Virus record (IMG/VR): IMGVR_UViG_3300028601_000030
Span: 1-64,000 of that record
Strand: one strand, 5' to 3'
DNA: 64,000 nucleotides
DNA from: a virus
Lineage: Duplodnaviria; Caudoviricetes
The translations under genes were made by a program, and so were the position numbers. Of this stretch, positions 5,924 to 26,106 are shown piece after piece. The notes below the pieces were generated by a model that was not told the DNA's origin, ran no database searches, and saw only the letters and a list, made by a program, of their open reading frames with translations. Each line of letters opens with the position of its first letter. The stretch's first letter is position 1.

Positions 5924-6291
5924 TGGACAAACTTCTTTTTCCAAAATGTGGTATATATATTTCGGATGTTGAAAGAATTGCTAAATACGCAGATAATAAA
6001 CGACACGCGGCAAAACTTTTGGGTATAAGTGAGCGCCAATTTTACAGCGTGATTAAATCCCAAAATTTGGATCATCTTTTCCAGTTAAAAAAGAAACGTA
6101 AAATAACCATAACAAAACAAGATTTGCAAGAGCTGGCTGAGATTGGCGTAACCATTGCTGATGCCGCAGCTATTCTGGAAACTGATCGTGGTTGGGTACG
6201 TAAACTTTTAAACCGCTGGAACATGCGTCATTTGTTTGAGACAAATTCTGGCAAGTGTTCATGGAAAGCAAGGAGGGGATATTGTGGATGA
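5923..6291 (+). CDS. Tandem HTH DNA-binding protein
   Basis: Two HTH-like segments: KRHAAKLLGISERQFY and TIADAAAILETDRGWV. Confidence 0.6.
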   Translation: MDKLLFPKCGIYISDVERIAKYADNKRHAAKLLGISERQFYSVIKSQNLDHLFQLKKKRKITITKQDLQELAEIGVTIADAAAILETDRGWVRKLLNRWNMRHLFETNSGKCSWKARRGYCG

Positions 6292-6607
6292 TCTAAAAAA
6301 TTGTCCGGTTTGTGGAGCACCAGCTGAAGCTGAATACTGTGAAAATGAATTAGGTATGGGATTGGTAAGATGTACAGAATGCCATATGAGGGTATTTGGT
6401 GAAATTGATTCAGTTATCAGTTTTTGGAATGAGCAGGCAAAGGTGTACAGTATGGGTAATCGAAAATACCAAGAAGAATTAGACTGTTTGAAAAAATGCG
6501 AAGAAACGTTACGCGCGTTGGTAGAAGCAAAGTGTTTGAAAAATTCTGGAAAAACTTCTCCAGAATCTGAAGAAAAGAAAGAAAGAGGATGGACACAAGC
6601 AATATAA
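6284..6607 (+). CDS. Lar (restriction alleviation)-family zinc-ribbon protein
   Basis: LKNCPVCGAPA...VRCTECH...FWN pattern; AGGAGG RBS before GTG. Confidence 0.6.
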   Translation: MDDLKNCPVCGAPAEAEYCENELGMGLVRCTECHMRVFGEIDSVISFWNEQAKVYSMGNRKYQEELDCLKKCEETLRALVEAKCLKNSGKTSPESEEKKERGWTQAI

Positions 6608-7319: not shown

Positions 7320-7916
7320 ATGGGTTCTCAGTTCGTACAGCCAGAAATTCCAGAAATTGAAGAAAAGTACACTAAGGAGTATTTTCAAAAGCGTAGACGC
7401 AACATCCGACAAGAACTTGGAGTAATAGAAGCGAATCATGTTGTTAATGGAGGAACTACTGATTTAGTTTCAAACCTACTCACTCGGAAACATGCGGTTG
7501 AATTGTTGGAAGCAAAACACATGACTACCATTTCTAAGAAAGTCAATTTTGCTTCCGCTCATTTCTTGCCTGAACATCCTGGTAAATGTCGAAATCTCCA
7601 TGGACATGAATGGACAGTTGAAGTTGCTATTGAAGCTCCTGTAACAAAGTCTGGAATGGTTATGGATTTTGGTACATTGAAACAAATTCTAAATACTTAC
7701 GTGGTTGAAAAGCTTGACCATGCTTTTCTAAATATGCTGGTTGTTAATCCTACAGCAGAAAATTTGGCGATGTATATCTGGAACATTCTCCAATACGAAG
7801 CTGAATTGAAATTGATCACGTACATTCGCTTGTGGGAAAGTCCCAATTCAATGGTCGAATTGATAGAGAAGCAGATGCAGTATGCAACTCGGGGCATGTG
7901 GGATTGGGAGGTTTAA
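7320..7916 (+). CDS. queD: 6-carboxy-5,6,7,8-tetrahydropterin synthase with about 70-aa N-terminal extension
   Basis: FASAHFL...CRNLHGHEW, GMVMDFG, LDHAFLN, PTAENLA, WESP motifs. Confidence 0.95.
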   Translation: MGSQFVQPEIPEIEEKYTKEYFQKRRRNIRQELGVIEANHVVNGGTTDLVSNLLTRKHAVELLEAKHMTTISKKVNFASAHFLPEHPGKCRNLHGHEWTVEVAIEAPVTKSGMVMDFGTLKQILNTYVVEKLDHAFLNMLVVNPTAENLAMYIWNILQYEAELKLITYIRLWESPNSMVELIEKQMQYATRGMWDWEV

Positions 7917-8576
7917 ATGGAACCAGTTTATTCTGTAGTGGAATTTTTTGAATCTATTTCAGGAGAAGTAGGAACAACAATCCCGCAAGGTGAACGTACT
8001 TGGTTTCTGCGATTTGCTGGATGTTCTTTGCAGTGCAAATGGTGCGATTCTCAGCATTCTTGGAACTCTGCAAGCAAGAGGATAACTCTGATAGATTTGA
8101 TGGACGATATTGCATTTGCTGCTCCTACAAATCTGATTGTTACTGGTGGTGAACCTTTTGAACAACCACACATTTATAAATTTTTTGATACATTGTGCAA
8201 GACAGAAATCAAGAACATTGCTGTTGAAACGGGTGGTGTAGAAATTGATGATTTTTTCCTTTTGCATAAACGTGGAAGGATCAGTATAATCGCCGATTAC
8301 AAACCCAGAAGTGCTGGTATAGAAAAAGAACACAACACCCTTAATTATGACTATTTGCGGTCTGAAGATGTTGTAAAGTTTCCTGTTGCCACTGATGAAG
8401 ATTTAGATGAAGCTATCAAAACGTGGCAACATTTAGCATGGAATGAACACGGACCAAAATTTGCATTTACACCAATATTCCCTATGACAGCCGAAAAATT
8501 GTTTGAGCGTCTACGCTGTTTCCCCGATTCTTTTAGAATAAACGGGCAGTTACATAAATATTTCGGACTTGCTTGA
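7917..8576 (+). CDS. queE: 7-carboxy-7-deazaguanine synthase (radical SAM)
   Basis: FESISGE, FLRFAGCSLQCKWCDS, VTGGEP, VETGG, QLHKY motifs. Confidence 0.92.
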   Translation: MEPVYSVVEFFESISGEVGTTIPQGERTWFLRFAGCSLQCKWCDSQHSWNSASKRITLIDLMDDIAFAAPTNLIVTGGEPFEQPHIYKFFDTLCKTEIKNIAVETGGVEIDDFFLLHKRGRISIIADYKPRSAGIEKEHNTLNYDYLRSEDVVKFPVATDEDLDEAIKTWQHLAWNEHGPKFAFTPIFPMTAEKLFERLRCFPDSFRINGQLHKYFGLA

Positions 8577-8584
8577 TTTTTTTC

Positions 8585-8613
8585 TTGACGTACACAGCGT
8601 ATATGTATAGATT
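8585..8613 (+). promoter_or_regulatory. Sigma70-like promoter
   Basis: TTGACG-17nt-TAGATT in the gap after queE. Confidence 0.6.
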
Positions 8614-8648
8614 ATGTGCATGATGTTAAAACAAAAAGAGAGGTTGTC

Positions 8649-8810
8649 ATGGAGAAGAATTTTGAAATACCTACCCTTGAGTGTAAACGATGCGGGCACG
8701 AATGGGTACCTAGGGTAAAAGTAATCCGCACCTGTCCAAAATGCCGTTCCCCTTATTGGGACACACCAGCGCAATCCACAAAGAAGGAGAAAGAAAATGA
8801 CCTACAATGA
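8649..8810 (+). CDS. Small zinc-ribbon protein
   Basis: CKRCGHEWVPR...CPKCRSPYW; GAGG RBS. Confidence 0.75.
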   Translation: MEKNFEIPTLECKRCGHEWVPRVKVIRTCPKCRSPYWDTPAQSTKKEKENDLQ

Positions 8811-9294
8811 TCTGAAAACTGCGGTCAAGGAACTGAACGATCTGACGCTTGAAGGGCTAGATAAGCTCAAAACTGTCGGACTTCGCAAAGAAGTTCTTCT
8901 GGAGAGTTTTCTCCGTTCAGTTGAGAAAGTAGATGATCTCGGTAAAACTGAGGAGCTTCCCGCTTCCATCATCGAAGCGTACAACTGGTTCTCCAAGAAC
9001 GAAATGGAAGAATCCCCCAGTGCGAAAAAGGGAGCTGGACAAGCAAAGAAAAAGTCCATCAAGAAGTCTCGGTATGGTCACGTTCAGAGTGCCGTGTCTG
9101 GTAAGTTGGATGATATGTTGTTTGAAGGTGCAACCATTGCTGATGTGATGCAGGCGCTGGAACTGAAGCGTACTCGCGTCATTGGTCATATCAAGCATCT
9201 GAAAAATGACAAAGGTCTTACCTTCATTGAAGAAAAGCCCGCAGATGGTAAGCTGAATGACACCTTCTACCGTTGCAAAGAAGAATCTGCATAA
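8797..9294 (+). CDS. Putative DNA-binding protein (C-terminal wHTH-like)
   Basis: AAGGAG RBS; C-terminal GATIADVMQALELKRTRVIGHIKHL. Confidence 0.6.
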   Translation: MTYNDLKTAVKELNDLTLEGLDKLKTVGLRKEVLLESFLRSVEKVDDLGKTEELPASIIEAYNWFSKNEMEESPSAKKGAGQAKKKSIKKSRYGHVQSAVSGKLDDMLFEGATIADVMQALELKRTRVIGHIKHLKNDKGLTFIEEKPADGKLNDTFYRCKEESA

Positions 9295-9319
9295 TATGTA
9301 GTTGGTACATACTTTTATT

Positions 9320-9360
9320 GAAGGGAACGGAATTAGCTTTTCGTTCCCTTCTTTCTTTTT
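9320..9360 (+). terminator. Intrinsic terminator
   Basis: GAAGGGAACG...CGTTCCCTTC stem followed by TTTCTTTTT. Confidence 0.8.
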
Positions 9361-9373
9361 AAGGGTGAAATTC

Positions 9374-10933
9374 ATGGACACAAATAAGATTGAAAAGGGC
9401 ATTGAGTTAGTTTTGTCTGGACTTGTTGGTAACGATTGGAGAGCAGATGAAAACTTTTCTGAAACCCCAGCGCGTGTAGCAAAAGCGTACAAAGAAATGC
9501 TTTATGGTCATGATCTTCGTAGAACAGACATGGCTAAATTTTTCGAAAAGAAATTCCCTGCTGCCGGTTACAGTCAGATGATTTTCTGCACAGGAATCAA
9601 AGTTTATTCCATGTGTCCGCATCATCTATTACCTGTGACGTACAATGTATCTGTAGGGTATATTCCGAATGAGAAAGAGGGATATGTTATCGGTGCTTCG
9701 AAGCTTCCTCGACTTGTTGAAGCACTTGCAGCACAAGCAATCATTCAGGAAGAACTTACTTCTGAGATTGCCAAAGAGATTCAATTTCATCTCAACCCTA
9801 CAGGTATTGCACTTGTTGTTTCGGGGCAGCATTTGTGTTATGACGATCAGACAGACATTCTTACGGATAATGGTTGGAAAAAGTTTTCTGAATTAGGACG
9901 ATGGGATAAAGTGGCCCAATATAATCAAGAGTTAGAGAGCATTACTTTTGTATATCCCACAGAGTATATTTCCTACCCTTATCAAGGGGATATGATTTCA
10001 ATGAAAAGCAAAAACTATGATCTTTTAGTAACTCCAGATCATAGAGTTCTTTGCTCTTCAGAATGGAAATATAAAAATTCAAACGGTAAATTTGTAGATA
10101 TTGTTACTGCCGAACAATTATTAGATCAGCGTAAAACTTATTTGCCAAAGACTGCAAAAAATGGCAAAACAGATGGAGTTCGCATAAATTCTATTTATGG
10201 TGTTAACGGGGATGATTTTTGTGAATTTATGGGTTGGTATTTAGCTGATGGTTGTTGTAGTTATCGAAATAATAGAAAAACTGTTTGTATTACAAAATCT
10301 CGAACTAAGAATAATGGACAGGATCGAAAAGATTTATTATCCTTGTTGGATAAACTGGGATGTGATTATAGAGAATCAGAGGCAGACAATAATATTACAA
10401 TTACTGGAGAATTTTTACAATGTGTATTTCCATTATTATTTGAATGCGGAAAATCAAGAGATAAATTTGTGCCTAGAGTGATAAAATCAAGCACACAGGA
10501 ACAAATAAATCTTTTTTTAGACGCATATATCCGTTGTGATGGTCATATATATGAAAATGGGAAAGTGCATTTTTGTACAATATCCAAACAACTGCTTTCT
10601 GATTTGCAAGAGATGCTTTTATATGTTGGTAAAAGTGGAAGTATTCAATCTAATAACATGCGAATGGAAACAAATAAAGGGTATGCGTGTTTAGACTCAC
10701 AACATATTACAAAAACTTATTATGACGGGTATGTTTATTGTGTTTCCGTCCCAGATTCCTTATTAGTTGTTCGTAGAAATGGAAAAGTATCTATTTCTGG
10801 CAATTGTATGCAGGCTCGCGGCATCAAACAGCGTGGCAGTTCGTTTGAAACTTCAGAAATGCGCGGAGCATTTAGGGAGAATGAAAGCACCCGTAATGAA
10901 TTTTTTGAACTACTGAAAAACTCACAGAGGTAA
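9374..10933 (+). CDS. folE: GTP cyclohydrolase I interrupted by an intein (about 196 aa spliced)
   Basis: ETPARVAKAY, SMCPHHLLP, GASKLPRLV, IIQEELT motifs; HL|CMQARG restored when residues encoded by 9836-10804 are removed. Confidence 0.95.
   Translation: MDTNKIEKGIELVLSGLVGNDWRADENFSETPARVAKAYKEMLYGHDLRRTDMAKFFEKKFPAAGYSQMIFCTGIKVYSMCPHHLLPVTYNVSVGYIPNEKEGYVIGASKLPRLVEALAAQAIIQEELTSEIAKEIQFHLNPTGIALVVSGQHLCYDDQTDILTDNGWKKFSELGRWDKVAQYNQELESITFVYPTEYISYPYQGDMISMKSKNYDLLVTPDHRVLCSSEWKYKNSNGKFVDIVTAEQLLDQRKTYLPKTAKNGKTDGVRINSIYGVNGDDFCEFMGWYLADGCCSYRNNRKTVCITKSRTKNNGQDRKDLLSLLDKLGCDYRESEADNNITITGEFLQCVFPLLFECGKSRDKFVPRVIKSSTQEQINLFLDAYIRCDGHIYENGKVHFCTISKQLLSDLQEMLLYVGKSGSIQSNNMRMETNKGYACLDSQHITKTYYDGYVYCVSVPDSLLVVRRNGKVSISGNCMQARGIKQRGSSFETSEMRGAFRENESTRNEFFELLKNSQR
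9836..10804 (+). mobile_element. Intein with LAGLIDADG-type endonuclease in FolE (323 aa)
   Basis: Starts CYDDQTDILTDNGWK; block B LLVTPDHRV; FMGWYLADG and FLDAYIRCDG; ends YVYCVSVP...VRRNGKVSISGN followed by Cys. Confidence 0.93.
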
Positions 10934-11928
10934 TGATGGAAATTGTCAAAGCGGAAATACTCTTTAGTCGCCAGTGCCCACTTGATTGTTCATACTGTGG
11001 TATGAAAAATGAAAAGCAAAATAACCGCTCAATCAATGAATGGTTCATTGGTTTGGAAAATCTCAAATCTTTGGGGTGTCAATTTGCCGCTTTCTATGGG
11101 GCGGAGATATTGATGGAGTTTGACAAACTGAAGAAAGTTGTTGGTTATTCGGAATCAATCGGAATTGCTACAACTATCATAACTTCTGGGGCTGTTCCAG
11201 ATTTTAAGAAAAAACTACGTGAGTTATACGACAACGGTGCAAGAAGTCTGACCATGTCCAATGATTTGTGTACAACAGATCCTTCAAGCAGACGAAAAAC
11301 GGAACAAACATTATCCAACTTGCAGTTTTTCAACGAATATCCAGAATGTCGGGACGTTGCTTCTATCACAACTTTGACCAGACAGAACTTTCATCACCTT
11401 CCTGAAGCAATCAAAAAGCACACGGAAATGGGCATATGGACGTTCTTTGATTTCATTCACCCTGATAGAGGACTTCCAGGAACAAAGTGTCGGGGCAATG
11501 CAGAAGGTTTTGTTTTCGAGGACGAAGATTTCCCGAAGCTTGCAGAAGTTATGGATGAAGTCTGCGAAATGAAAGAACAAGATTATTTGGTTCATGTGTC
11601 CAAAGAATACATTAACCTTATGAAGCAAAATGATTTCAGCCTTCTGAAAAATTATAATTGGAACTGCGCTAAGTTGGATGTATTTCCGTCCTGGGTAACT
11701 ATTGACTGTGATGGTTCTGTACATTACTGCGATGATTTCCAAGAACAACGAAAACAACCTAAGTTTGACATGACTACACTGTTTAAAGACTGGGATAAAT
11801 TCTGCAGGCATGGTAAAAAGCTAGTTGGTACACGTTGCAGAGGATGTGCATGGTCTACTCATATTGACGCCCACTATATTAAGATGGGTATCAATGATAT
11901 AGATTCTTATGTACATGGGAGAACATAA
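10933..11928 (+). CDS. Radical SAM protein with SPASM/twitch-like C-terminus, function unknown
   Basis: CPLDCSYC motif, FYGAE, ITSG; C-terminal C...IDCDGSVHYCDD...CRGC. Confidence 0.85.
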   Translation: MMEIVKAEILFSRQCPLDCSYCGMKNEKQNNRSINEWFIGLENLKSLGCQFAAFYGAEILMEFDKLKKVVGYSESIGIATTIITSGAVPDFKKKLRELYDNGARSLTMSNDLCTTDPSSRRKTEQTLSNLQFFNEYPECRDVASITTLTRQNFHHLPEAIKKHTEMGIWTFFDFIHPDRGLPGTKCRGNAEGFVFEDEDFPKLAEVMDEVCEMKEQDYLVHVSKEYINLMKQNDFSLLKNYNWNCAKLDVFPSWVTIDCDGSVHYCDDFQEQRKQPKFDMTTLFKDWDKFCRHGKKLVGTRCRGCAWSTHIDAHYIKMGINDIDSYVHGRT

Positions 11929-11994
11929 TGGATTTCTACAAAATACTTACTGAATTTTCACCTGTAGGAAGCACTTCTTGGAGAGGGATATAAA

Positions 11995-12978
11995 ATGATA
12001 CTTTGTCTTTCAGGCGGACTAGATTCCGTAATTGCGTATTATTATATGGGGAAACCCAAAACTATCTTTTTTGATTATGGTGACTATACCAAAGTTGAAA
12101 AAGAACGAGTCCTTGCAATTGCTCCTGACACAATCATTGACAAGTCTTTGAATCTGGCGGGAAAGTCTCAAGGAAAAACAGCGTATATTCCCAATCGCAA
12201 TCTGATGTTTGCAGCACTTGCATGTAGGTATGCCAATACCATTGTTATGGCAGGAATAAAAGATGATGATGTTCCCGATAAAAATCGAATAGCCTTTACG
12301 GAAATGGGAGAACTCCTGTCTAATATTAGTGGCGGTACAACCATAAAAGTAGAATCTCCTTTTTGGGAAATGACAAAATCAGACTTAGTTGCGTGGGCAA
12401 TTGATAATCTGTCTACAGATGAATTGGAAACTGTTTTAGAGGTTTCTATATCCTGCTACACACCCACACCAGACGGTAAAGAGTGTCGAAGTTGCCCCTC
12501 TTGTTTCAGAAAATGGAATGCTTTAGATGCCAACGGTATTCATACCAAGTTCAAAAACAAAGCTTTGATGGAAGAATATCTGCAAAAAGCAAAGGATGGT
12601 GTTTATATTCCAGAAAGAAATTCATCTATTATCCGCAGTGTTACTGGTTATTTTAGCAAGGACCTGAGACAAAAGCCTAAAGTGTATTGCTTTGACATTG
12701 ACGGTGTTCTGACTGTAGAGACTGAGGGATATGGAGAAGAAGTTTACCGGAATCGCACACCAAACATCGTAATGATTGAAAAGGTGCGAAAACTACACTT
12801 GATGGAGAATAAAATCATTCTCCATACAGCAAGGCATAAAGAGGATATATCTGTCACTTGTGATTGGCTTGCAAAGCACAGTGTTCCGTTTGATGCGCTT
12901 CAATTTGAAAAGCCGAAAGCTGATTATTACATTGACGACCGAATGATAAGAATGGAAGAGGTTCTTACCCATGTCTAA
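11995..12978 (+). CDS. queC: 7-cyano-7-deazaguanine synthase fused to a HAD-family phosphatase domain
   Basis: SGGLDS, YIPNRNLMF, SCY...CRSCPSC; C-terminal FDIDGVLT, HTAR, KPKADYYIDDR. Confidence 0.9.
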   Translation: MILCLSGGLDSVIAYYYMGKPKTIFFDYGDYTKVEKERVLAIAPDTIIDKSLNLAGKSQGKTAYIPNRNLMFAALACRYANTIVMAGIKDDDVPDKNRIAFTEMGELLSNISGGTTIKVESPFWEMTKSDLVAWAIDNLSTDELETVLEVSISCYTPTPDGKECRSCPSCFRKWNALDANGIHTKFKNKALMEEYLQKAKDGVYIPERNSSIIRSVTGYFSKDLRQKPKVYCFDIDGVLTVETEGYGEEVYRNRTPNIVMIEKVRKLHLMENKIILHTARHKEDISVTCDWLAKHSVPFDALQFEKPKADYYIDDRMIRMEEVLTHV

Positions 12979-13843
12979 AATTTCCTTTTTCCTAGATTGT
13001 GGTGCCTATAGCGCCGATTCTCAAGGCAAGCCCGTTGATCTTGAGGAATACATTGCCTATATAAAACAACACGAACACTTACTGGATATTTACCCAGTCC
13101 TTGATGTTATTGGCAATGCCGAAGAAACTTGGAAAAATCAGCAAATCATGGAAGATGCTGGACTTAAACCATTACCTGTGTTTCACGTAGAAGATAATAT
13201 GAACCATCTTTTTCAGTGTTTGGAATATGAGTATTTTTGTTTAGGTGGTATGGCAGGAGGTGCTGGAGGAAAAACAAGGCAAGCCTTTTTGAACAAATGT
13301 TTTGACATCATCTGTGACACACCTGACAGAAAACCGAAATCAAAAGTTCATGGTTTTGGATTAGCTTCACCATCATTGATGGTGCAGTATCCTTTCTACA
13401 GTGTAGATACTTCTAGTTGGGTTGCGTACTCACAGTATGGAATAATACTTGTTCCTAAGCACGACAACGCAGGCAATCCATTATACGGAGCAACACCGAC
13501 AAAGATCTTTGTCACCGAGCGTTCACCAAAAATGGAGATTGAGGGACAACACTTCAAAAACCTGACCAGTAAAGAAAAAGACTTTGTGCTGAAATACATT
13601 GAAGATTTAGGATTCCAGATGGGCAAATCATCTACGTTCGAAGTCTCAGAAGACTACACCTTGCAAGAGTCAGAGACTTTCATGAATAAAGAAAAAACTC
13701 GCGTTGAGCGTGCGGAGATTTGCGGAATCAGCAATAATAATTCAATGCGCTACGTTTACAACATGCGTTACTTTCAAGCAATTGCAGATTCTTGTTCCGA
13801 GTGGCCGTGGTCTTGGAGTCCTAAGATTCGTAGTTTTTTCTAG
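12971..13843 (+). CDS. dpdA: TGT-like DNA deazaguanine transglycosylase (DpdA-like)
   Basis: FLDCGAYS, VLDVIG, LGGMAG, KVHGFG, SVDTSSW TIM-barrel motifs; adjacent to queC/folE. Confidence 0.8.
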   Translation: MSKISFFLDCGAYSADSQGKPVDLEEYIAYIKQHEHLLDIYPVLDVIGNAEETWKNQQIMEDAGLKPLPVFHVEDNMNHLFQCLEYEYFCLGGMAGGAGGKTRQAFLNKCFDIICDTPDRKPKSKVHGFGLASPSLMVQYPFYSVDTSSWVAYSQYGIILVPKHDNAGNPLYGATPTKIFVTERSPKMEIEGQHFKNLTSKEKDFVLKYIEDLGFQMGKSSTFEVSEDYTLQESETFMNKEKTRVERAEICGISNNNSMRYVYNMRYFQAIADSCSEWPWSWSPKIRSFF

Positions 13844-13851
13844 GAGTAGAT

Positions 13852-14076
13852 ATGAAATACCTAAAAGAAATCTCAATTACCAGTAAATCTGGTTCAGATG
13901 AAGTGAACTTGCTGCTGGAAGAAAACCCTGAAGCAGTTGAAAAATATATCCACGTTCAGCGTAAAGGAACAAAGGTGGTTATCCCTGCTTTATCTACCTC
14001 GGATATTGATGAACTTATGCAGGCATTGCATCCGTATAGCAGTTGCGGACAATTTTTGAATGGTGTTGCAAGTTAG
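13852..14076 (+). CDS. Hypothetical protein
   Basis: ORF with AGGAG RBS. Confidence 0.65.
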   Translation: MKYLKEISITSKSGSDEVNLLLEENPEAVEKYIHVQRKGTKVVIPALSTSDIDELMQALHPYSSCGQFLNGVAS

Positions 14077-14083
14077 GAGAAAT

Positions 14084-14278
14084 ATGATGGCTAAAATCAG
14101 AGTAGAAACTATCCGTGAATTTTACTTGGAATTATCAGAAGCAGAAGCTTCCTATTTGAAGGACATTCTTCAAAATTATCTAGGTGCAGGAGAAGAATAT
14201 ACACTAGATAGAACTATTCGGGAGAGATTGTTCAAAGAACTTCATAGCGGATTTCATCCAGATATGGAGGAGAAATAA
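14084..14278 (+). CDS. Hypothetical protein
   Basis: ORF with AGGAG RBS. Confidence 0.65.
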   Translation: MMAKIRVETIREFYLELSEAEASYLKDILQNYLGAGEEYTLDRTIRERLFKELHSGFHPDMEEK

Positions 14279-14607
14279 TGAACCAATATGAAATGCTATT
14301 GAAGGCAAACAGGAAGCTCCAAGCAGACATTAAAGTTTTGCAGGAAGCTTATGAGCAAGAAGTTAAAAATGCCCATCGACTTACAGGTGAGGTTAATTCA
14401 TTGAACAAAAAAGTGGCTACTTTGGTAGAACAGACTGCAGGATTTACATTCAAGGAGCAAATGATTCTCACTATATGGCCAATGCTGTTTGAGCACTTTG
14501 TAAAAGACACTGGAATTTCCACTACCTCTGCAAAGAATCGTGCCTTGAATATTATCCAAGATTTAGAATCTAATCGTTTTTCAAGTCATGGAGAATCCAT
14601 TATATGA
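14278..14607 (+). CDS. Coiled-coil hypothetical protein
   Basis: Overlapping stop/start; heptad pattern. Confidence 0.65.
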   Translation: MNQYEMLLKANRKLQADIKVLQEAYEQEVKNAHRLTGEVNSLNKKVATLVEQTAGFTFKEQMILTIWPMLFEHFVKDTGISTTSAKNRALNIIQDLESNRFSSHGESII

Positions 14608-14792
14608 TTCTATATTTTGCGGGTAATTTCGAATACTTAGGCAAGGTTGAAAAAGAAATGGAATTAGCAAATCTTTGCTTGCAAAAGTCTGGTTCATATA
14701 ACAGACTAAGCTCATTCTTTTTCAGAAAAGAAACTGACAATGTCCTGCAAGTTGTTGAAGAACTTAAACAAGGAGAAGAGAATGAAGGTTAA
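14604..14792 (+). CDS. Small protein resembling the N-terminal LYFAG...RLxS segment of some phage TGT/DpdA-like proteins
   Basis: MILYFAGNF...YNRLSSFFF; resemblance from recall only. Confidence 0.4.
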   Translation: MILYFAGNFEYLGKVEKEMELANLCLQKSGSYNRLSSFFFRKETDNVLQVVEELKQGEENEG

Positions 14793-15804
14793 AACAGAAG
14801 AATTGAAATCAGTAATCAAGGTTCTATTACCGGCAACCAGTAAAAAGGACTTGGTGTTGCAAATGGCGCACCTTGTATTCCAAGAAAATGAAATACTCGC
14901 CTATAACGACCGCATTGCGATTGCTCATCCTTTTGAATCTGGTATTACTGCATCGGTACCTGCTGGGTCTTTGAATAAGATTCTTGATGGTATCGAAGAC
15001 AAAGAAATTGAATTGTCGGCAGATGATAATAATCTGACCATCACAAGCAAATCGACTGAAGCTGTTATCCAGATTGAAACCGAGTCTCGTGTAGTTGAGG
15101 AATATTTCTCTGAAGTTGACTTTGATGATATGGTTTGGGAGGCTGTACCAAAGGACTTTCTTGATAATCTGGCACTTGCTCGTTTGAGCACTTCAAGCAA
15201 CGTATTCGACCCGAACAATCTGTATTGCGTCTATGTAAACAAAGAATGCTTGGATTCAAGTGATGGTTACAGGGTGTCTCGTATTTTTATGGAGTCTGAT
15301 TTTGAAGATAGTTTCCTTTTACCCTCATCTTCAATTCAAGACCTCTTGACATTTAAAAGCTTTGAGTCCTACTCCCTCGAAGACAGCTGGATTCATTTCA
15401 CCACTGACAACAAGGTGACTGTATCTTGTCGCACAGGAGCCGGTGACTTTCCCGACTTCACAGAAATCATTGATGGGTTTGAAAAAGAATCCGAAATCAA
15501 GATTGATGCGAAGCTTATCCCGGCACTTGAAAACTTGAGTGGTTTGGTTGAAGGCGAATCTGATTTTATGAAGTCGGTAAATATCGAACTCAAAGCAAAG
15601 AAGGCAATCATCACTGGACGTAAAGAAGGTGTGAGTGTCAAGAAATCGTATGATGTTGAAAATTCCGGTACAGCTACTTTCGACATTAGCCCTGTGTTTC
15701 TGGCATACATTCTAAAACTGACAAACAACATGGCAATTGGAGAACACAGTGCCTTGTTTGAAGACAACGACAAGTTTATCCACCTCGTACAACTTCCGGT
15801 ATAA
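14782..15804 (+). CDS. DNA sliding clamp (DnaN/beta-clamp-like)
   Basis: About 340 aa acidic beta-rich protein; ILAYNDRIAI, LDSSDGYRV motifs; directly upstream of the polymerase. Confidence 0.75.
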   Translation: MKVKTEELKSVIKVLLPATSKKDLVLQMAHLVFQENEILAYNDRIAIAHPFESGITASVPAGSLNKILDGIEDKEIELSADDNNLTITSKSTEAVIQIETESRVVEEYFSEVDFDDMVWEAVPKDFLDNLALARLSTSSNVFDPNNLYCVYVNKECLDSSDGYRVSRIFMESDFEDSFLLPSSSIQDLLTFKSFESYSLEDSWIHFTTDNKVTVSCRTGAGDFPDFTEIIDGFEKESEIKIDAKLIPALENLSGLVEGESDFMKSVNIELKAKKAIITGRKEGVSVKKSYDVENSGTATFDISPVFLAYILKLTNNMAIGEHSALFEDNDKFIHLVQLPV

Positions 15805-15806
15805 TT

Positions 15807-18800
15807 ATGGCTAAGATTCACAATTTCTTTTCCAAGAGTAAAGATGCTGTTCCTATGGAATGCGCTAAATGCGGCATGTTCAACGGCTGTAAAAACGGAC
15901 GTATGAAACCAGCTGGTCTAGGAGAAAAGAAAATATTGGTTATCACTGACTCCCCTGACGCTCAAGCTGATTTGAAAGGAACAATTGCTGAAAGTTCCCA
16001 ATACAAATTCCTGCATACAGAATTGCGTAAGTTGGGACTTAACCTCTATAAGGACTGCTGGACTGTTCCGGCAGTCCGTTGTTATTCAGAACGTACACCA
16101 CAAAAAGCACAAGCGATGCACTGTAAACCAGAGCTTGAAGAAGATTTCAAGTCACTTCAACCGAAACATGTATTTACATTTGGCAATATTTCATTGGGCA
16201 CAATCACAGATAAGTATTATTCTGGTATTATCAGTGAGAATTGTATGGGAGATTCAATTCCCATTAAAGAATTTGGATTTTATCTTCATCCGTTTTTAGA
16301 TGTCCCTCAAATTCAAGCAACAAAGAAAAACAAGAATTACCAATCTTATGTCAAACGGCAATTACACAAGGCGATTGAGTTTGCAAAGTCTGGAAGAGGA
16401 TTTATAAACTACACATACGATGATCCTAAAAATGTAGAATTCCTGCTTGATGCTAAATCAGTTCTGGACAAACTTGGCGAATTGATGGATGAAAAAGAGA
16501 TTGCCCTTGACTACGAAACAACAGGCATAAAGCCCCATCGTGACGGACACAAGATAACTGTTGTTGGATTGTCTACTGATGATAGCGCATACGCTTTCCC
16601 ACTTGACTATCAAGAGTATTGGAACGTTGATGATTGGAATGATATTAACGATGCTTTGGCAGACCTCATAGAAGCAAAGAAACCAAAGATGATTGTGCAT
16701 AACAAAGTGTTCGAAAATCTTTGGTCTCGTTTTATATTGGAAGTTGATTCATTCATGGACGAATGTACCATGATTCGTCAACATGTGTTAGATCATCGGC
16801 GCAAAACAAAATCCCTGAAGTACCAGATATTCCGACGTTGGGGAATTTGGGGATACGATGCTTCGATGGATAGGTATATTAAAGCTCCAGATTCCAACTC
16901 AATGAACAAAATGGACGAAGCTCCGTTAGACGATCAATTGTTGTATGTTGGACTTGATGCGTACATGACGATGAAACTTCATCGCGAACAGGAGAAAGAG
17001 TTTGCTGGGAAGAAAAATCTGCAACAGGCAAATAAGTTTTTCCAAGAATCGTCAAATTCTATGACAGTTCTGCAAGAATCTGGTTTAAATGTAGATGAAA
17101 AATATTACCAAGAAATAGAAAAAGAATTAACTCGTACAATCACTGGGTTAGAAAAATCAATCTCAGCAAACGAAGAAGCCCAACGCTTTCGTAAACTGTA
17201 TAAGAAAAAGTTTGACCACAATTCACCGATGAATCTCAAGAGGTTGTTGTTTGATCAAATGGGATTAGAGTCGGTGAAAGACACAGCCAAAGGTGGGCAA
17301 GCTGTTGATGCTGAAGTTTTGAAAGAACTGGACATTCCTATTGGTAATTATATCCTTGATTTACGTAAGTATCTCAAACTCAGGGACACGTACCTTTCAC
17401 AGTTTAAACGTGAAGTTGTTGATGGACATATTCATCCATTCTTTTATCTGACAACAGTTACCAGTTATAGGTCCTGTATAGCTGGATATGAAAAAGTAAT
17501 GGTTGTTCGTGATTTTGAATCTGAACCTGAAGGAATACCAATAAAAGATGTTAAAGTTGGTGATTTAGTTTATTGCTTTGATGATAAATTAAACCCTCAG
17601 ATAAAAAAGGTTTTGTGGCAAGGTAAGACTGGTCATAGAGAAATTATACGAGTGCATTATTACCGCAAGGGTAAACGTTATTATTTTGATTGTACTCCTG
17701 AACACAAGGTACGATTGATTGATGGGTCGTATATAGAAGCTCAAAATTTAAAACCAAATGATCATGTACTAGCTTGCAGTAGAACTGGAGATTATATAAA
17801 TTTTACTGGTCACTTAAAACATGGGCATGGGTTTAAAGAGCATCGCTTTATCTATGAACAATTGGTAGGTGATTTAAATTCTGATGAAGTAATACACCAT
17901 AAAAATTGGAATCACTTTGATCATCGTCCAGAAAACTTACAAAAAACAACCAGATCGGAACACAGTAAAATTCACGCATCTGTTTTGTCAAATCTTCCGG
18001 AACGTAAAGAACTAGCTCGGCAGTCGATGTTAAAACGTTGGGAAAACAATGAATTTTCTCCCAGATTTGGGGAAGACAACAATTCGTATGTTTTTATCAT
18101 CCGTTTTGCTTGCCTGCGAAAACTTGCTGAAAATCACGGCAAACTCAAACTGGCTGCTGAATCTATTCCTATGGATTTTGCTACATTTAAAAATAAAATT
18201 TCTGACTACGGTTTAGATTGGAAAACGATAAAACTCAGATATGACAAAAACGGGAAATATATTTCTAAAGCAAGATTGCAGAACTTGTCTCATTTAGGAA
18301 GGAGTAAAGTACAACGAATTTTAGGACACAATTATTATAAGTTATTAGAATTGTATAAATTCTACGGATTAGATTTAAAACGAAAATGGTCAAATCAATT
18401 TGGAGAATTTGTTCCAGGCAATCACAGAATAACCGGTATAGAGCATTTGCATACAAGTGTTGATGTGTATGATATTGAGGTAGAAGATCATCACAATTTC
18501 TTTGTAAATGAGATTTGTGTGCATAATTCAAGTGCAGACCCAAATTTCCAGAACATACCCAAGCGGGACAAAGAAGCAAAGAACTCTATTCGTTCTGGAA
18601 TCGTGCCTTCAAAAGGCAACAAGCTTTGTGAGATTGACTTCTCTGGTATGGAAGTTTCTACTTCAGCTACGTATCACTGTGACCCGAATTTTATCAATTA
18701 CCTACTTGATGATTCAGCCGACATGCACAGGGATAATGGCTGTGACATTTGGATGCTTGAACAAGATGAAATGACTCCAGAGATTCGTTTCTTTGTCAAG

Positions 18801-19397
18801 AATGGTTGGACATTTCCTCAGTTTTATGGTGATTGGTATGATTCATGTGGTCGTGCATTGTGGAAAAGCTCATTGCATTTGAACACGGCTGCTGGTATCA
18901 CACTTGAAGAACATTTGAAAGGCAAGGGAATCTATAGCCAAAATGAGTTTTTGGAACATTGCAAGTCTGCTGAAAACATTATGTGGCATGAACGCTTCAA
19001 GGTTTACACTGAGTGGAAAGAATCCATCAATGATTTTTATCTGAAAAATGGATATGTTGAAACACACATGGGATTTCGTTTCACAGGTATGATGGACAGA
19101 AAGCAAACTGCAAACTTTCCTATTCAAGGTACAGCGTTTCATCTTCTCCTGTTCTGCATAAACTTGATGATTAAAGAGAAGCAGAAACGTAAGTGGAAAT
19201 CACGTTTCATTGGACAAGTGCATGATAGTTGCATCATCGACCTTGTCCCAGAAGAACAAGATGAAATATTTGAGGTGTTCGATTATCATGTCCAGCACAC
19301 CATCCCCGAAACATTTAAATGGGCGAATGTTCCGTTTCGCATAGACAAAGAAGTGTCTCCTATCGACGGAACATTTGCACAATTGGAGGAATTATAA
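15807..19397 (+). CDS. polA: Family A DNA polymerase with N-terminal UDG-like domain, 3'-5' exonuclease and an intein (about 845 aa spliced)
   Basis: ExoI LDYETTG, ExoII HNKVFE, ExoIII YVGLDA; RS|SSADPNFQNIP; motif A EIDFSGME, motif B RFFVKNGWTFPQFYG, motif C QVHDS. Confidence 0.95.
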   Translation: MAKIHNFFSKSKDAVPMECAKCGMFNGCKNGRMKPAGLGEKKILVITDSPDAQADLKGTIAESSQYKFLHTELRKLGLNLYKDCWTVPAVRCYSERTPQKAQAMHCKPELEEDFKSLQPKHVFTFGNISLGTITDKYYSGIISENCMGDSIPIKEFGFYLHPFLDVPQIQATKKNKNYQSYVKRQLHKAIEFAKSGRGFINYTYDDPKNVEFLLDAKSVLDKLGELMDEKEIALDYETTGIKPHRDGHKITVVGLSTDDSAYAFPLDYQEYWNVDDWNDINDALADLIEAKKPKMIVHNKVFENLWSRFILEVDSFMDECTMIRQHVLDHRRKTKSLKYQIFRRWGIWGYDASMDRYIKAPDSNSMNKMDEAPLDDQLLYVGLDAYMTMKLHREQEKEFAGKKNLQQANKFFQESSNSMTVLQESGLNVDEKYYQEIEKELTRTITGLEKSISANEEAQRFRKLYKKKFDHNSPMNLKRLLFDQMGLESVKDTAKGGQAVDAEVLKELDIPIGNYILDLRKYLKLRDTYLSQFKREVVDGHIHPFFYLTTVTSYRSCIAGYEKVMVVRDFESEPEGIPIKDVKVGDLVYCFDDKLNPQIKKVLWQGKTGHREIIRVHYYRKGKRYYFDCTPEHKVRLIDGSYIEAQNLKPNDHVLACSRTGDYINFTGHLKHGHGFKEHRFIYEQLVGDLNSDEVIHHKNWNHFDHRPENLQKTTRSEHSKIHASVLSNLPERKELARQSMLKRWENNEFSPRFGEDNNSYVFIIRFACLRKLAENHGKLKLAAESIPMDFATFKNKISDYGLDWKTIKLRYDKNGKYISKARLQNLSHLGRSKVQRILGHNYYKLLELYKFYGLDLKRKWSNQFGEFVPGNHRITGIEHLHTSVDVYDIEVEDHHNFFVNEICVHNSSADPNFQNIPKRDKEAKNSIRSGIVPSKGNKLCEIDFSGMEVSTSATYHCDPNFINYLLDDSADMHRDNGCDIWMLEQDEMTPEIRFFVKNGWTFPQFYGDWYDSCGRALWKSSLHLNTAAGITLEEHLKGKGIYSQNEFLEHCKSAENIMWHERFKVYTEWKESINDFYLKNGYVETHMGFRFTGMMDRKQTANFPIQGTAFHLLLFCINLMIKEKQKRKWKSRFIGQVHDSCIIDLVPEEQDEIFEVFDYHVQHTIPETFKWANVPFRIDKEVSPIDGTFAQLEEL
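17475..18527 (+). mobile_element. Intein with HNH endonuclease in PolA (351 aa)
   Basis: Starts CIAGYEKV; CTPEHKV; HNH motif VIHHKNWNHFDHRPENLQKTTRSEHSKIH; ends VYDIEVEDHHNFFVNEICVHN followed by Ser. Confidence 0.95.
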
Positions 19398-23624: not shown

Positions 23625-23727
23625 TATATCAGCACACATTTTACAAATAAAAATCAAATACACCGCGCGAGAATAGCGGGAATCGTTATTTCTTGTAGCC
23701 CACTTGCTCGATAGAAAGGTTTGCTCT

Positions 23728-26106
23728 ATGTTGAATCGTAGATCAAAAGGCGAAAATGATGCAGCAGTGGAAAACATTCAGAAAACTGAAAAGAAAATTC
23801 CTAAAGTTGCAGATAATTATGTATCGGTCGATAAAGACACTCTGCTTGTATCCACAGGCTCTACTCTACTTGATCTTGCTATTTCTGGTGGACGTGTTCG
23901 GGGTGGGGGAATCCCTGGTGGAATCATGTGCGAAATCTTTGGACAAAGTTCCGCCGGAAAATGTATTACAGGCAATACGCAAATATTAACGGATAAAGGG
24001 CAATATGCCATCGAAGACTTCTCTTCTGGGGAAGAGGGGTTTGTCGAACATCGGATGAAAATAGTTTCCGATTCTGGTATTGAAGATACTTCTCATTTCT
24101 ATGAAGAGGAATCTTCTGAAGTTATCCAAATAACAAATACTCTTGGTATGGATATAACTGGAACTCCAGAACATCCTATACTTTGTTATTGTGCTGGTGG
24201 TATATCTTTTAAAAAATTATCGGATATCCATATCGGTGATTTGACTTGTATCCCCAGAGAATTAGGAATTTTCCCAAAAGATAATTTCTATATTGCTTTT
24301 AAAGATCCAACAAGACAAACATCTGCAACGAGGACATTGGTGAATATTCCGGAAAAACTTACCCCAGAACTTTCTAGGCTACTTGGATACCTAGTAGCTA
24401 ACGGTTGTGGAAAGGATAATCTTATTGGGTTTTCATCGAAAAATAAGAAAATTCGAAAAGATGTAATATCCATTTGTTCTTCATTAGGAGTAGAATGCGG
24501 AAAACTAGAAAAGGGCAAAGATTTTGGTATTAAAGGAAGAGTTTTTCGAAATTTTATTGACTACTTGAATGGAGAACCTTTCCAAAAATCCAGAACAAAG
24601 AAAATACCAGTATCTGTTTTACAATCGAATAGAGAATGTCAACGCCAATTCCTTCTTGGTTTATTCGACTGTGATTCTTGGTATGATTATAACTGCACGT
24701 TTGAATATTATACGGCAAGTAAAATGTTAGCCGTACAAGTACAAACGATGCTCCAAAATTTTGGTATTTTATCTGTGCATGGTGAGAAATATTTGGAAGA
24801 ATATGAGCATACTTACCATTCTATTAAAATACCAGCGTGGGGGGTAGAAAAATTCTATGAGCTGTTCCCAGATTCCATTAAATATGAATGGCATAAAAGG
24901 GAATTTCAAAAGGATTTTAATCGACTACCAATTAATAATGAGCTTCGTAATTTAGTAGATTCTATAAGAAAGGAGTTGGGGGTAAAAAATAACGGTGCCT
25001 TTCTTTATAAAGGACTTAGTGGTCGTTTTCAATTATTAAAAGGTGTTCCAGATCAGTTTTCCAAACAATCGGATAATTACAATGCAAGACATCTTCCAAT
25101 CATTTTAAAAAATGCAAAAAAATTACCACAAGTAGATTCCGTAAAAAGTTTAATAAATTTTGTTACTCAACTTATTCCTTATTTCTTATCACCTGTAACA
25201 AAGGTTAAAGTAAAAAAAGAACCAACAATGGTTTACGATTTTACGATACCAGAAACACATAAATTCTTTAGTAATGGGTATATTTCTCATAACACAGCAA
25301 TCCTTACAGAAATAGCTGCATCTATTCAAGATAGAAAAGGTGATGTTTTCTTTGTTGATCCTGAAGCCCGCATAGATAAAGAGTACAGCAAGATTTACGG
25401 GTTTGAAATGAACAAAAATAATTATGCCCGTTGTGACACTGTTACCGAGACATTCGACCTTCTTGAAAAATGGGCACCTGAGAATCCAAACAAAATCAAT
25501 TTGTTTGCGGCGGATTCAATAGCAGCTCTTTCTACTGATATGGAGATGGGAGAAGGTGACAAGCGTGGACAAAGAAAAGCAAAAGAATTGTCCGAAGGTT
25601 GCCGGAAGACTGCTCGGCTTATTGCTCACAATAATAAGCTTGTCATTTTTACCAACCAAGAACGTGACGGAGAATATGGTAAAACAACCCCCGGCGGTCA
25701 TGCCATCCCGTATCACTGTTCGCTCAGGATGCGAGTCTCACGGAAGGGCAGAATCGAAAAGAAAAAGACGATTGCTTCAGGAAAGGCTGTCACTAAGACA
25801 ATCGGCATTGAGTCGGAGGTGCTGATTAGAAAATCTACCGTTGATGATGAATACAGAACAGCCCCTATTTTCATAATCTTTGGTGTAGGTATTGATGATG
25901 TCCGTGCAAATCTTCAGTACGTAAAAGACATGGAGAAGCTTACCAAATATTGGTGTGTTGACACTGAATATGTTTCCATGGACAAAGCTATCACGTACAT
26001 TGAAGACAACGATCTGGAAGAAGAATTACGTGAACGTGTGATTGATATTTGGGAAGAAGTTGAAGCCAAATTTACTATGGAACGCAAAAAGAAAAAGAGG
26101 TTTTGA
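23728..26106 (+). CDS. recA: RecA/UvsX-like recombinase with an intein (about 348 aa spliced)
   Basis: STGSTLLDLAI, GGIPGG, EIFGQSSAGK|T, FVDPEAR, DSIAAL, FTNQ, TTPGGHAIPYHCS. Confidence 0.93.
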   Translation: MLNRRSKGENDAAVENIQKTEKKIPKVADNYVSVDKDTLLVSTGSTLLDLAISGGRVRGGGIPGGIMCEIFGQSSAGKCITGNTQILTDKGQYAIEDFSSGEEGFVEHRMKIVSDSGIEDTSHFYEEESSEVIQITNTLGMDITGTPEHPILCYCAGGISFKKLSDIHIGDLTCIPRELGIFPKDNFYIAFKDPTRQTSATRTLVNIPEKLTPELSRLLGYLVANGCGKDNLIGFSSKNKKIRKDVISICSSLGVECGKLEKGKDFGIKGRVFRNFIDYLNGEPFQKSRTKKIPVSVLQSNRECQRQFLLGLFDCDSWYDYNCTFEYYTASKMLAVQVQTMLQNFGILSVHGEKYLEEYEHTYHSIKIPAWGVEKFYELFPDSIKYEWHKREFQKDFNRLPINNELRNLVDSIRKELGVKNNGAFLYKGLSGRFQLLKGVPDQFSKQSDNYNARHLPIILKNAKKLPQVDSVKSLINFVTQLIPYFLSPVTKVKVKKEPTMVYDFTIPETHKFFSNGYISHNTAILTEIAASIQDRKGDVFFVDPEARIDKEYSKIYGFEMNKNNYARCDTVTETFDLLEKWAPENPNKINLFAADSIAALSTDMEMGEGDKRGQRKAKELSEGCRKTARLIAHNNKLVIFTNQERDGEYGKTTPGGHAIPYHCSLRMRVSRKGRIEKKKTIASGKAVTKTIGIESEVLIRKSTVDDEYRTAPIFIIFGVGIDDVRANLQYVKDMEKLTKYWCVDTEYVSMDKAITYIEDNDLEEELRERVIDIWEEVEAKFTMERKKKKRF
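23962..25293 (+). mobile_element. Intein with LAGLIDADG endonuclease inserted in the RecA P-loop (444 aa)
   Basis: Starts CITGNTQI; ITGTPEHPI; LLGYLVANG and FLLGLFDCDS; ends VYDFTIPETHKFFSNGYISHN followed by Thr. Confidence 0.95.

Follow-up and report, generated by a model that had tools for sequence, protein, structure and literature searches.

Phage DNA is known to contain eight 7-deazaguanine bases and, to our knowledge, every addition to the list has so far involved new enzymology and shown a resistance profile of its own towards restriction and CRISPR. The closest described systems are the dPreQ0 and dG+ clusters of CAjan, 9g and the Queuovirinae (Hutinet 2019, PMC6884629). As in the phage described here, FolE, QueD, QueE, a QueC-family enzyme and DpdA are encoded there in the replication module, beside the sliding clamp and the polymerase, and their DpdA proteins are 35-40% identical to the one reported here. 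However, those phages carry a canonical QueC or a Gat-QueC and have neither a second full-length radical SAM enzyme nor a HAD protein, whereas our locus combines a remodelled QueC paralogue with both. Additional enzymes that alter the 7-substituent from within such a cluster (dDG, mdPreQ1, fdPreQ1) are those of phiST, phiSM and immuto, namely DpdL, a QueD paralogue, DpdM, a DUF3109 protein, and DpdN, a formyltransferase (Cui 2023, PMC10516641). Unlike the three genes considered below, none of these is a radical SAM/SPASM enzyme, a HAD protein or a QueC paralogue, and mdPreQ1 and fdPreQ1 are made, by the routes described so far, via QueF, which we did not find in this phage.

Two systems outside phage DNA are also comparable. 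In the ArcS-RaSEA pathway to archaeosine, a radical SAM enzyme likewise comes into play once preQ0 has been formed, its substrate being a 7-deazaguanine adduct, but the target is tRNA and ArcS, of which our phage has none, is obligate (PMC11298593). QatC and Cap9 are repurposed QueC paralogues in which, as in our protein, the ATP site is kept and the substrate pocket is changed; they ligate 7-carboxy-7-deazaguanine (CDG) to an amine rather than form a nitrile (PMC13329287). Both serve in bacterial defence, where they modify a partner protein, in contrast to the phage protein, which retains a zinc motif and a biosynthetic context and matches QatC only marginally (E 0.003).

Organization of the cluster and its core genes

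The window that we analysed, a stretch of 64,000 nucleotides, belongs to a 79.6-kb record of a virus estimated to be 67% complete. A deazaguanine cluster occupies positions 7320-13843 on the + strand, where QueD, QueE, an intein-split FolE, a radical SAM enzyme, a QueC-HAD fusion and DpdA are encoded by co-oriented and tightly packed genes (Table 1), with stops and starts that abut or overlap at 7916/7917, 10933 and 12971-12978. The first-pass annotation of this DNA had listed co-oriented queD, queE, folE and dpdA-like genes with a second radical SAM enzyme and a HAD domain in the middle of the operon, and profile and sequence matches bear it out. It had also proposed a neighbourhood search for the set of radical SAM, QueC-HAD and DpdA genes; the same gene order was seen again in more than 60 independent viral contigs and, because of this recurrence, the arrangement is not a matter of chance. 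On balance, we read the locus as a phage operon that would swap DNA guanine for a 7-deazaguanine and that includes a tailoring set made of the QueC paralogue, the radical SAM enzyme and the HAD phosphatase. An ATP-dependent ligase gene of the same phage lies at 28760-30136.

Table 1. Predicted features of the deazaguanine locus, in window coordinates
Feature	Coordinates	Strand	Matches or conservation
QueD (6-carboxytetrahydropterin synthase)	7320..7916	+	PF01242 E 6e-33; TIGR03367 103.3 bits (cut-off 89.25)
QueE-like radical SAM enzyme (CDG synthase)	7917..8576	+	QueE NCBIfam models; phrog_2076
Conserved protein without family assignment	8797..9294	+	homologue between QueE and FolE in 38/58 loci
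FolE (GTP cyclohydrolase I), intein-interrupted	9302..10933	+	PF01227 E 4e-46; NF006826 163.1 bits (cut-off 162)
LAGLIDADG intein inside FolE	9836..10804	+	PF14528 E 6e-11; Intein_splicing and Hint matches
Extra radical SAM enzyme, twitch/partial-SPASM type	10933..11928	+	PF04055 38 bits (cut-off 29.5)
QueC-HAD fusion ORF, whole	11995..12978	+	
QueC-like PP-loop ATPase / Zn-ribbon domain	11995..12624	+	PF06508 E 4e-21; TIGR00364 61.8 bits
Minimal (cap-less) HAD phosphatase domain, fused to QueC-like	12640..12978	+	TIGR01689 E 4.5e-8; phrog_1238 E 1e-20
DpdA-type DNA guanine transglycosylase	12971..13843	+	phrog_887 E 9e-42; CAjan DpdA 38% identity
Small conserved ORF, 62 aa, between DpdA and sliding clamp	14604..14792	+	positional homologues in 21/58 loci

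The T-fold domain of QueD covers residues 70-181, while no match was found for the 69-residue N-terminal extension. We considered whether this gene might be a DpdL paralogue and ruled it out by the motif criterion of Cui 2023 (PMC10516641), since the protein carries CxxxHGH and not the DpdL motif LxxxHRHxF. The QueE-like protein contains CxxxCxxC and GGEP motifs and matches the QueE-like family phrog_2076 (E 4e-24); its best NCBIfam matches are QueE models (E 1.3e-30 and 4.6e-26), both under the equivalog cut-offs. In FolE, for which the true start is probably the ATG at 9374, the intein corresponds to residues 179-501 of the ORF, as delimited by alignment to intein-free FolE homologues, and sits before the Cys of a conserved H-x-C motif. 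The protein encoded between QueE and FolE has an N-terminal helical part, a Lys-rich linker and a C-terminal SRYGH...LDD...H.KHL block; it matched nothing in Pfam, NCBIfam or PHROG and is probably DNA-binding.

The identity of DpdA to the experimentally characterised CAjan enzyme extends over 225 residues (E 2e-43), and the query matched 187 phage records, mostly annotated as DpdA/TGT. Neither sequence nor profile searches of the PDB gave a match. The best 50 PDB fold matches of its AF2 model (pLDDT 89.6) were all tRNA-guanine transglycosylases with a probability of ~1.0, yet with TM-scores of 0.34-0.49 and E ~1e-3. Three aspartates that may be catalytic, D9, D45 and D146 in the protein's own numbering, do not vary among 18 homologues. 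By sequence and model, the protein is a predicted DNA guanine transglycosylase of the CAjan/9g type.

A divergent QueC paralogue fused to a phosphatase domain

The gene first labelled queC does belong to the QueC family but is not a canonical QueC. Its PF06508 match, at 75.8 bits well above the superfamily threshold of 22, is confined to model positions 85-208, and its TIGR00364 score falls under the equivalog cut-off (61.8 against 150.3 bits). In E. coli QueC, residues Y35 of the YxQxHxxE motif, R99 of VPxRN and Y131 of YPDC are essential by mutagenesis (PMC13329287). The first of these motifs reads YGDYTKVE in our phage and (L)G(T)Y(S)xKE across the family, where 30 of the 47 members have Leu at the Tyr position. 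The third reads VPDK, or V(S/P)DK/R across the family, and the loop around it is about 13 residues shorter. VPxRN is kept as IPNRN, with Arg and Asn invariant and Pro present in 46 of 47 members, and the SGGxDS PP-loop and the C(x)nCxxCxxC zinc motif are invariant in all 47. Compared with canonical QueC, two loops have been lost and a conserved C-terminal extension gained, whereas the QueC proteins of CAjan and phiSM keep the canonical motifs. Furthermore, a canonical Gat-QueC adjoins the HAD and QueC-like genes in loci L122 and L120 and in the P0161 contig. Because some phages carry Gat-QueC beside it, the QueC-like protein is a divergent paralogue of QueC, and the earlier assumption of a standard, preQ0-making QueC at this locus is not established.

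Nonetheless, four near-complete genomes of the window's clade have no QueC-family gene other than this paralogue, and for that reason its product in this clade may, the altered motifs notwithstanding, be no more than preQ0 or ADG. The locus would then be an ordinary dPreQ0 (or dADG) system, in which the divergent QueC supplies preQ0 or the amide and DpdA inserts it, an account also favoured by the retention of the PP-loop, the IPxRN motif and the zinc site and by the relatedness of DpdA to the preQ0-inserting CAjan enzyme (38% identity). The radical SAM enzyme and the HAD phosphatase would be merely supportive, either in precursor supply or, together with the phage ligase, in repairing 3'-phosphate nicks left by abortive base exchange. 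We consider this rather unlikely: the preQ0 pathway has no step for which a phosphatase or another radical SAM enzyme would be needed, CAjan and other characterised dPreQ0 phages do without the pair, and parts of the trio coexist with canonical Gat-QueC.

The HAD domain resembles PDB 1xpj (E 1e-7) and conserves the DxDG motif, the motif III Lys and the motif IV Asp in 40-43 of 43 family members, which places it, by sequence, in the HAD phosphatase superfamily. Its relatives are mini-HADs of the phosphosugar type, many of them fused to cytidylyltransferases. It also resembles the 3'-phosphatase domains of polynucleotide kinases and, owing to this likeness, could act in DNA-end repair, which, with the ligase at 28760-30136, would suit the supportive role just described; the tight linkage that withstands rearrangement is, however, to the QueC-like gene and not to repair genes.

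The extra radical SAM enzyme and the linkage of the trio

Cysteines C15, C19 and C22 (CxxxCxxC), C245, C266 and C305 are invariant in the family of the extra radical SAM enzyme, and C259 and C302 nearly so. The conserved arrangement C245-x15-G261-x4-C266 followed by C302-xx-C305 fits the CX15GX4C plus CxxC pattern; the Pfam SPASM model gave no match, and no N-terminal peptide-recognition (RRE) domain was found in the protein. The closest PDB fold neighbour of its AF2 model (pLDDT 91) is BlsE, a cytosylglucuronate decarboxylase (PDB 7vob; Z 25.2, 302 of 327 residues, rmsd 3.4), followed by RiPP maturases (Z 20), viperin (18) and MoaA (17), and the fold matches include PqqE, SkfB and SuiB. Motifs and model together suggest a member of the SPASM/twitch group. 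The substrate of BlsE is a small-molecule nucleoside, but its pathway is unrelated and at 16% identity a shared reaction is not inferable; this identity holds no information on the substrate of the phage enzyme, the fold neighbours of which also include peptide maturases. The substrates of the radical SAM enzyme and of the HAD phosphatase are likely to be small molecules, given the BlsE fold, the lack of an RRE, the phosphosugar-type relatives of the HAD domain and the tailoring-type genes added in related phages.

Two other identities for this enzyme were considered. A QueE role is at odds with the separate QueE-like gene of the cluster; such a gene also occurs in four of the five relatives that were re-examined, the other being a fragment with a completeness of 37%, and B. 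subtilis QueE reaches only Z 9.8. A RaSEA identity is improbable on account of its partner: the obligate ArcS (DUF5591) is absent from the record and from four near-complete relatives. The DUF5591 search, which detected the domain in three archaea as a positive control, found none in the whole 79.6-kb record or in the four relatives (94-100% complete), and neither did searches for QueF and GATase, so that the reported absence of QueF, ArcS and Gat-QueC holds beyond the window.

A new route to a known base could also be imagined, in the manner of ArcS-RaSEA, with an amine adduct formed at the C7 group by the QueC paralogue and then cleaved by the radical SAM enzyme to give archaeosine (dG+) without Gat-QueC, QueF-L or ArcS. 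The part played by RaSEA in archaeosine synthesis is established (PMC11298593), QatC and Cap9 show that QueC-family proteins can ligate amines to CDG (PMC13329287), and every other route to G+ is missing in the window's clade. Yet we find this improbable, since RaSEA is functional only as a complex with ArcS (PMC11298593), no DUF5591 was found, the route would be redundant in the three loci that carry Gat-QueC too, and the HAD phosphatase is left unexplained.

The extra radical SAM family comprises 114 clusters at E<=1e-30. Searches by tblastn at E 1e-5 found no match in 50,697 deposited phage genomes, those bearing DpdL, DpdM or DpdN (phiST, phiSM, VH7D, immuto) included, and in 185,579 species genomes the only four matches were on MAG contigs of 3-65 kb. 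The neighbours were unchanged around a member as remote as E 4e-44. Among the contexts examined, the family is phage-only and occurs solely in deazaguanine clusters. This speaks against the radical SAM and HAD proteins being a separate viperin- or MoaA-like pair that modifies nucleotides for host takeover or counter-defence and is merely co-transcribed with the deazaguanine genes, as does the fact that the HAD domain is fused to the QueC paralogue and not to the radical SAM enzyme. Pairs of a radical SAM enzyme and a phosphatase acting on nucleotides are known in nucleoside-antibiotic pathways, and viperins and MoaA do give weak matches in sequence and in fold, but we give such a separate function little credence.

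With the radical SAM gene as the entry point, 54 loci were recovered, of which 53 had the QueC-like gene, 48 HAD, and 50 each DpdA and FolE. When 55 non-redundant, well-flanked QueC-like loci were considered, 44 had both radical SAM and HAD, six the radical SAM gene only, five HAD only and none neither; a fusion of HAD with QueC-like occurred in 13 of 68 cases. The trio is thus not obligate, with five of the 55 loci lacking radical SAM and six lacking HAD, which would fit merely supportive roles. The loci are metagenomic fragments, and gene absences in them are soft. Where FolE, QueD/QueE or DpdA have been relocated or the order inverted (L040, L028, L034-36, L049), the three genes are usually close and most often adjacent. 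At this position relatives bear further genes, for a methyltransferase, an SDR protein, a GT47-like (glycosyltransferase-like) protein or another radical SAM enzyme. The remodelled QueC paralogue, the HAD phosphatase and the radical SAM enzyme are a conserved, linked set restricted to phage deazaguanine clusters; no deposited phage genome has this trio, and the deazaguanine literature that we searched makes no mention of it.

A putative branch of deazaguanine biosynthesis

The gene identities, their family-wide conservation and physical linkage, the paralogy to canonical QueC and the lack of known tailoring enzymes are the basis on which a pathway may be proposed, of which we infer the substrates, the order of the steps and the final base. 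FolE, after splicing of the intein, QueD and QueE would convert GTP to CDG. The QueC paralogue would retain the ATP-dependent activation of the C7 carboxylate of CDG. The joint action of this paralogue, the radical SAM enzyme and the phosphatase would produce a 7-substituent other than a plain nitrile; the latter two would form or process a phosphorylated compound, either a partner or an intermediate, that probably derives from a sugar or a nucleotide. DpdA, being of the CAjan/9g type, would exchange the finished base for guanine in DNA, and tailoring could come before or after insertion. The first-pass suggestion of a product other than plain dPreQ0 gains strength from the linked set, the QueC paralogy and the extra genes of relatives, its chemistry being a matter of inference, and the trio probably makes a base other than plain preQ0.

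What is new here is a conserved, phage-only trio inside a deazaguanine cluster of known type, the core gene set itself having already been described. We tentatively propose, at somewhat less than even confidence, that a widespread clade of uncultivated phages installs a new 7-deazaguanine hypermodification through a three-enzyme branch, in which a twitch radical SAM enzyme and a mini-HAD phosphatase would accompany a QueC paralogue that serves as CDG ligase; candidate products include an N-substituted 7-carboxamide and a derivative that bears a sugar. With its radical SAM enzyme, its partner phosphatase and a QueC scaffold repurposed in a third way, the trio offers three candidates that could be cloned in the search for new base chemistry. 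Pipelines that label these genes "QueC" may wrongly predict dPreQ0 for a whole clade of environmental phages.

Core genes and the surrounding replication module

The full record is 79.6 kb long and is estimated to be 67% complete, the window covering its first 64 kb, where the deazaguanine genes lie inside a replication module. The QueD of the window has the CxxxHGH motif as found in QueD rather than in DpdL, a motif that distinguishes QueD from this decarboxylase paralogue (PMC10516641). QueE models gave the best matches to the window QueE (E 1e-30), yet these remained under the curated cut-offs. The likely start of FolE is the ATG at 9374 rather than the TTG at 9302. The conserved H-x-C motif of the protein is broken by an intein, which sits just in front of the Cys, ends in Gly-Asn and is lacking in the homologues of relatives. 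Although Pfam gave no match for DpdA, and neither did sequence and profile searches of the PDB, the protein is 38% identical (E 2e-43) to the DpdA of phage CAjan, whose DNA carries dPreQ0, and the top PDB fold matches of its AlphaFold model (pLDDT 89.6) are exclusively tRNA-guanine transglycosylases.

Features of the window in and around the deazaguanine cluster
Feature	Position	Strand	Remarks
Small ORF just upstream of the cluster	6236-6607		Weak match to restriction-alleviation protein Lar (E 3e-4)
Primase, helicase, small ORFs	5' of QueD	+	Replication module
QueD	7320-7916	+	Equivalog cut-off passed; CxxxHGH motif
QueE	7917-8576	+	QueE models are the best matches
Conserved protein between QueE and FolE	8797-9294	+	Homologues at the same place in relatives
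FolE with intein	9302-10933	+	Cut-off passed
LAGLIDADG intein of FolE	9836-10804		323 residues
Second radical SAM enzyme	10933-11928	+	Own phage-restricted family
QueC-HAD fusion	11995-12978	+	Partial Pfam QueC match; mini-HAD
DpdA	12971-13843	+	Homology to CAjan DpdA; fold matches
Small ORFs, then sliding clamp, then PolA	3' of DpdA	+	Same replication module
ORF between DpdA and clamp	14604-14792		62 aa; kept in 21/58 loci; no match to known domains
PolA	15807-19397		1196 aa; weak N-terminal UDG-like domain (E 0.005); 3'-5' exonuclease domain
RecA-like recombinase	23704-26106		Split by a LAGLIDADG intein, the third intein of the replication module

Of 58 loci, 38 have the conserved protein between QueE and FolE. 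Its N-terminus is helical, a Lys-rich linker follows, and the C-terminal part holds a conserved block, SRYGH...LDD...H.KHL; the protein may be a DNA-binding accessory or a regulator of the module. The polymerase domain of PolA carries an HNH-containing intein, and UDG-PolA fusions are also present in two relatives (L002 and L003).

A phage-restricted radical SAM enzyme and a divergent QueC

A second radical SAM enzyme and a HAD domain do sit inside the cluster, as the first-pass annotation had proposed, and the radical SAM enzyme belongs to a genuine family restricted to phages. Its homologues from a word-indexed search number 191, at 43-69% identity and all without names; in an exhaustive profile search the number of representative clusters was 114 with a threshold of E<=1e-30 and 790 with one of E<=1e-10. 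Neither tblastn of the enzyme against 50,697 deposited phage genomes nor megablast of the cluster region against deposited phages gave a match, and 185,579 prokaryote species (one genome each) yielded four matches, all on MAG contigs of 3-65 kb with the same phage genes wherever the sequence suffices. The CxxxCxxC motif is invariant in the family, which also conserves, in its C-terminal part, the CX15GX4C ... CxxC pattern usual for twitch/SPASM auxiliary clusters; an N-terminal peptide-recognition domain was not found. The structure closest to the model of the enzyme (pLDDT 91) is BlsE, the radical SAM decarboxylase of cytosylglucuronate (Z 25.2 over 302 aligned residues, with Foldseek concurring), followed by SkfB, PqqE and SuiB (Z about 20), viperin (18) and MoaA (17). 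Since the QueE of B. subtilis is distant (Z 9.8), and since the window phage has a separate QueE, as do four of the five relatives that were examined again (the remaining one is a 37%-complete fragment), we ruled out the enzyme as a QueE replacement. The PTO1314 family (TIGR03961) fits poorly, the score being 20 bits where the cut-off lies at 306. DpdL, DpdM and DpdN were likewise rejected, since there is no similarity to them and QueD itself carries the QueD motif. A word search showed no fusion to other domains above 580 aa, and the long forms among the profile matches proved to be intein insertions. Tandem paralogues of the family occur in some relatives (L037 8001-9933, L038 7998-9930, L049 7111-8990, and L050).

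The reading of queC as an ordinary QueC has to be revised: judged by score and motifs, the window protein is a divergent paralogue. Its Pfam QueC match is confined to model positions 85-208, and its score of 62 bits falls short of the equivalog cut-off, 150. Libby et al. 2026 (PMC13329287), who defined the canonical QueC signature, showed three of its residues to be essential in E. coli: Y35 (YxQxHxxE), R99 (VPxRN) and Y131 (YPDC). The QueC-like family, in 47 distinct members, shows little or no variation in the PP-loop, an IPxRN motif and the four zinc cysteines, while YxQxHxxE has become (L)G(T)Y(S)xKE and YPDC has become V(S/P)DK, two loops are absent and a conserved C-terminal Y...Y..ERN extension has been gained. 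In the same alignment the canonical motifs are kept by the QueC proteins of CAjan and phiSM, phages in which dPreQ0 and mdPreQ1, respectively, were measured. In the complete genomes of the window's own clade the paralogue is the sole QueC-family gene. However, in two related loci (L122 and L120) and on the contig with P0161, a canonical Gat-QueC (531-580 aa, with YGQ and YPDN motifs) directly adjoins the HAD and QueC-like genes, and because the two coexist they are unlikely to be doing the same job.

The HAD is a cap-less mini-HAD that keeps its catalytic DxDG, Lys and Asp across 43 members. Its relatives include PDB 1xpj (function unknown), TIGR01689 ('capsule biosynthesis phosphatase') and small HADs of T4-like cyanophages and Acinetobacter phages labelled 'phosphoheptose isomerase', some of them within heptose gene sets, and its structural relatives include HAD domains fused to cytidylyltransferases; polynucleotide-kinase phosphatase domains also match, more weakly.

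Linkage of the three genes across loci

The radical SAM enzyme, used as the seed, brought up 51 loci from IMG/VR, three further metagenome contigs and four contigs from MAGs, which show the order QueD-QueE-(unknown)-FolE-radical SAM-QueC-HAD-DpdA-(small ORF)-clamp. By tblastn, QueC was found in 53, HAD in 48, DpdA in 50 and FolE in 50 of 54 loci. Seeding with the QueC domain gave 59 loci, and the 55 left after duplicates and loci with short flanks were dropped comprised 44 with both radical SAM and HAD, six with radical SAM only, five with HAD only and none with neither. Of 68 non-redundant cases, 13 have HAD and QueC fused; in most others the HAD forms its own ORF, some 100 aa long, adjoining or near QueC on either side, and HAD-containing ORFs of 204-228 aa in relatives show no recognisable additional domain. 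Where FolE, QueD/QueE or DpdA has relocated, or the order is inverted, the three genes mostly stay close and are most often adjacent.

Further, optional enzymes occur at this same position, with methyltransferases in at least 10 loci. The close relative L079 has QueC-like and HAD genes, with a methyltransferase-like ORF at the usual place of FolE and the radical SAM gene. Other genes seen at the position are SAM-dependent methyltransferases (L122 4432-5121), an SDR (L120 4375-5340), a weakly matching GT47-like glycosyltransferase (L111 7644-8597) and the tandem radical SAM paralogues of L037, L038, L049 and L050. In relative L001, from an NCBI assembly, a phosphoribosyltransferase, a dNMP kinase and a PurA/PurZ-like adenylosuccinate synthetase surround the same deazaguanine cluster (1187-1774 and 12650-14802), and the DNA of this phage may carry another modified base as well, for example 2-aminoadenine.

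A possible tailoring branch

The absence of QueF, ArcS and Gat-QueC noted in the first-pass annotation stands, since QueF, class-II glutamine amidotransferase and the ArcS core domain (DUF5591) were found neither in the whole record nor in four 94-100% complete relatives, one of them with terminal repeats, whereas positive controls matched where expected among the reference genomes. In relatives, two weak matches to QueF were cross-matches on FolE, which has the same T-fold. Judged by the partner of RaSEA, ArcS, which was not found, the radical SAM enzyme is unlikely to be a RaSEA. We give little credence to a RaSEA-like new route to dG+, and as little to the reading in which the radical SAM enzyme and HAD are an unrelated nucleotide-modifying pair.

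By what is established for these families, the core pathway leads from GTP to CDG and is followed by base exchange by DpdA; none of its known steps calls for another radical SAM enzyme or for a phosphatase. Neither enzyme is mentioned for phage deazaguanine clusters in the main phage papers (PMC6884629, PMC10516641) or in the QueC-family survey (PMC13329287), literature searches returned nothing relevant, and DpdL, DpdM and DpdN, the tailoring enzymes known so far, differ in fold from the three proteins. The suggestion of a product other than dPreQ0 survives in a qualified form. A tailoring branch is the best explanation, and a modestly probable one, because the three genes are conserved, resist rearrangement and are restricted to deazaguanine clusters, the QueC pocket is remodelled, Gat-QueC coexists with the paralogue and further optional enzymes occur at the same position. 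A plain dPreQ0 or dADG system, in which the radical SAM enzyme and the HAD serve auxiliary or repair roles, is unlikely but keeps an appreciable share of the probability. In the favoured tailoring branch, the QueC paralogue would still adenylate the C7 carboxylate. A phosphorylated partner, perhaps coming from a sugar or a nucleotide, would be supplied or processed by the radical SAM enzyme and the phosphatase, and the final 7-substituent would then be something other than a nitrile.
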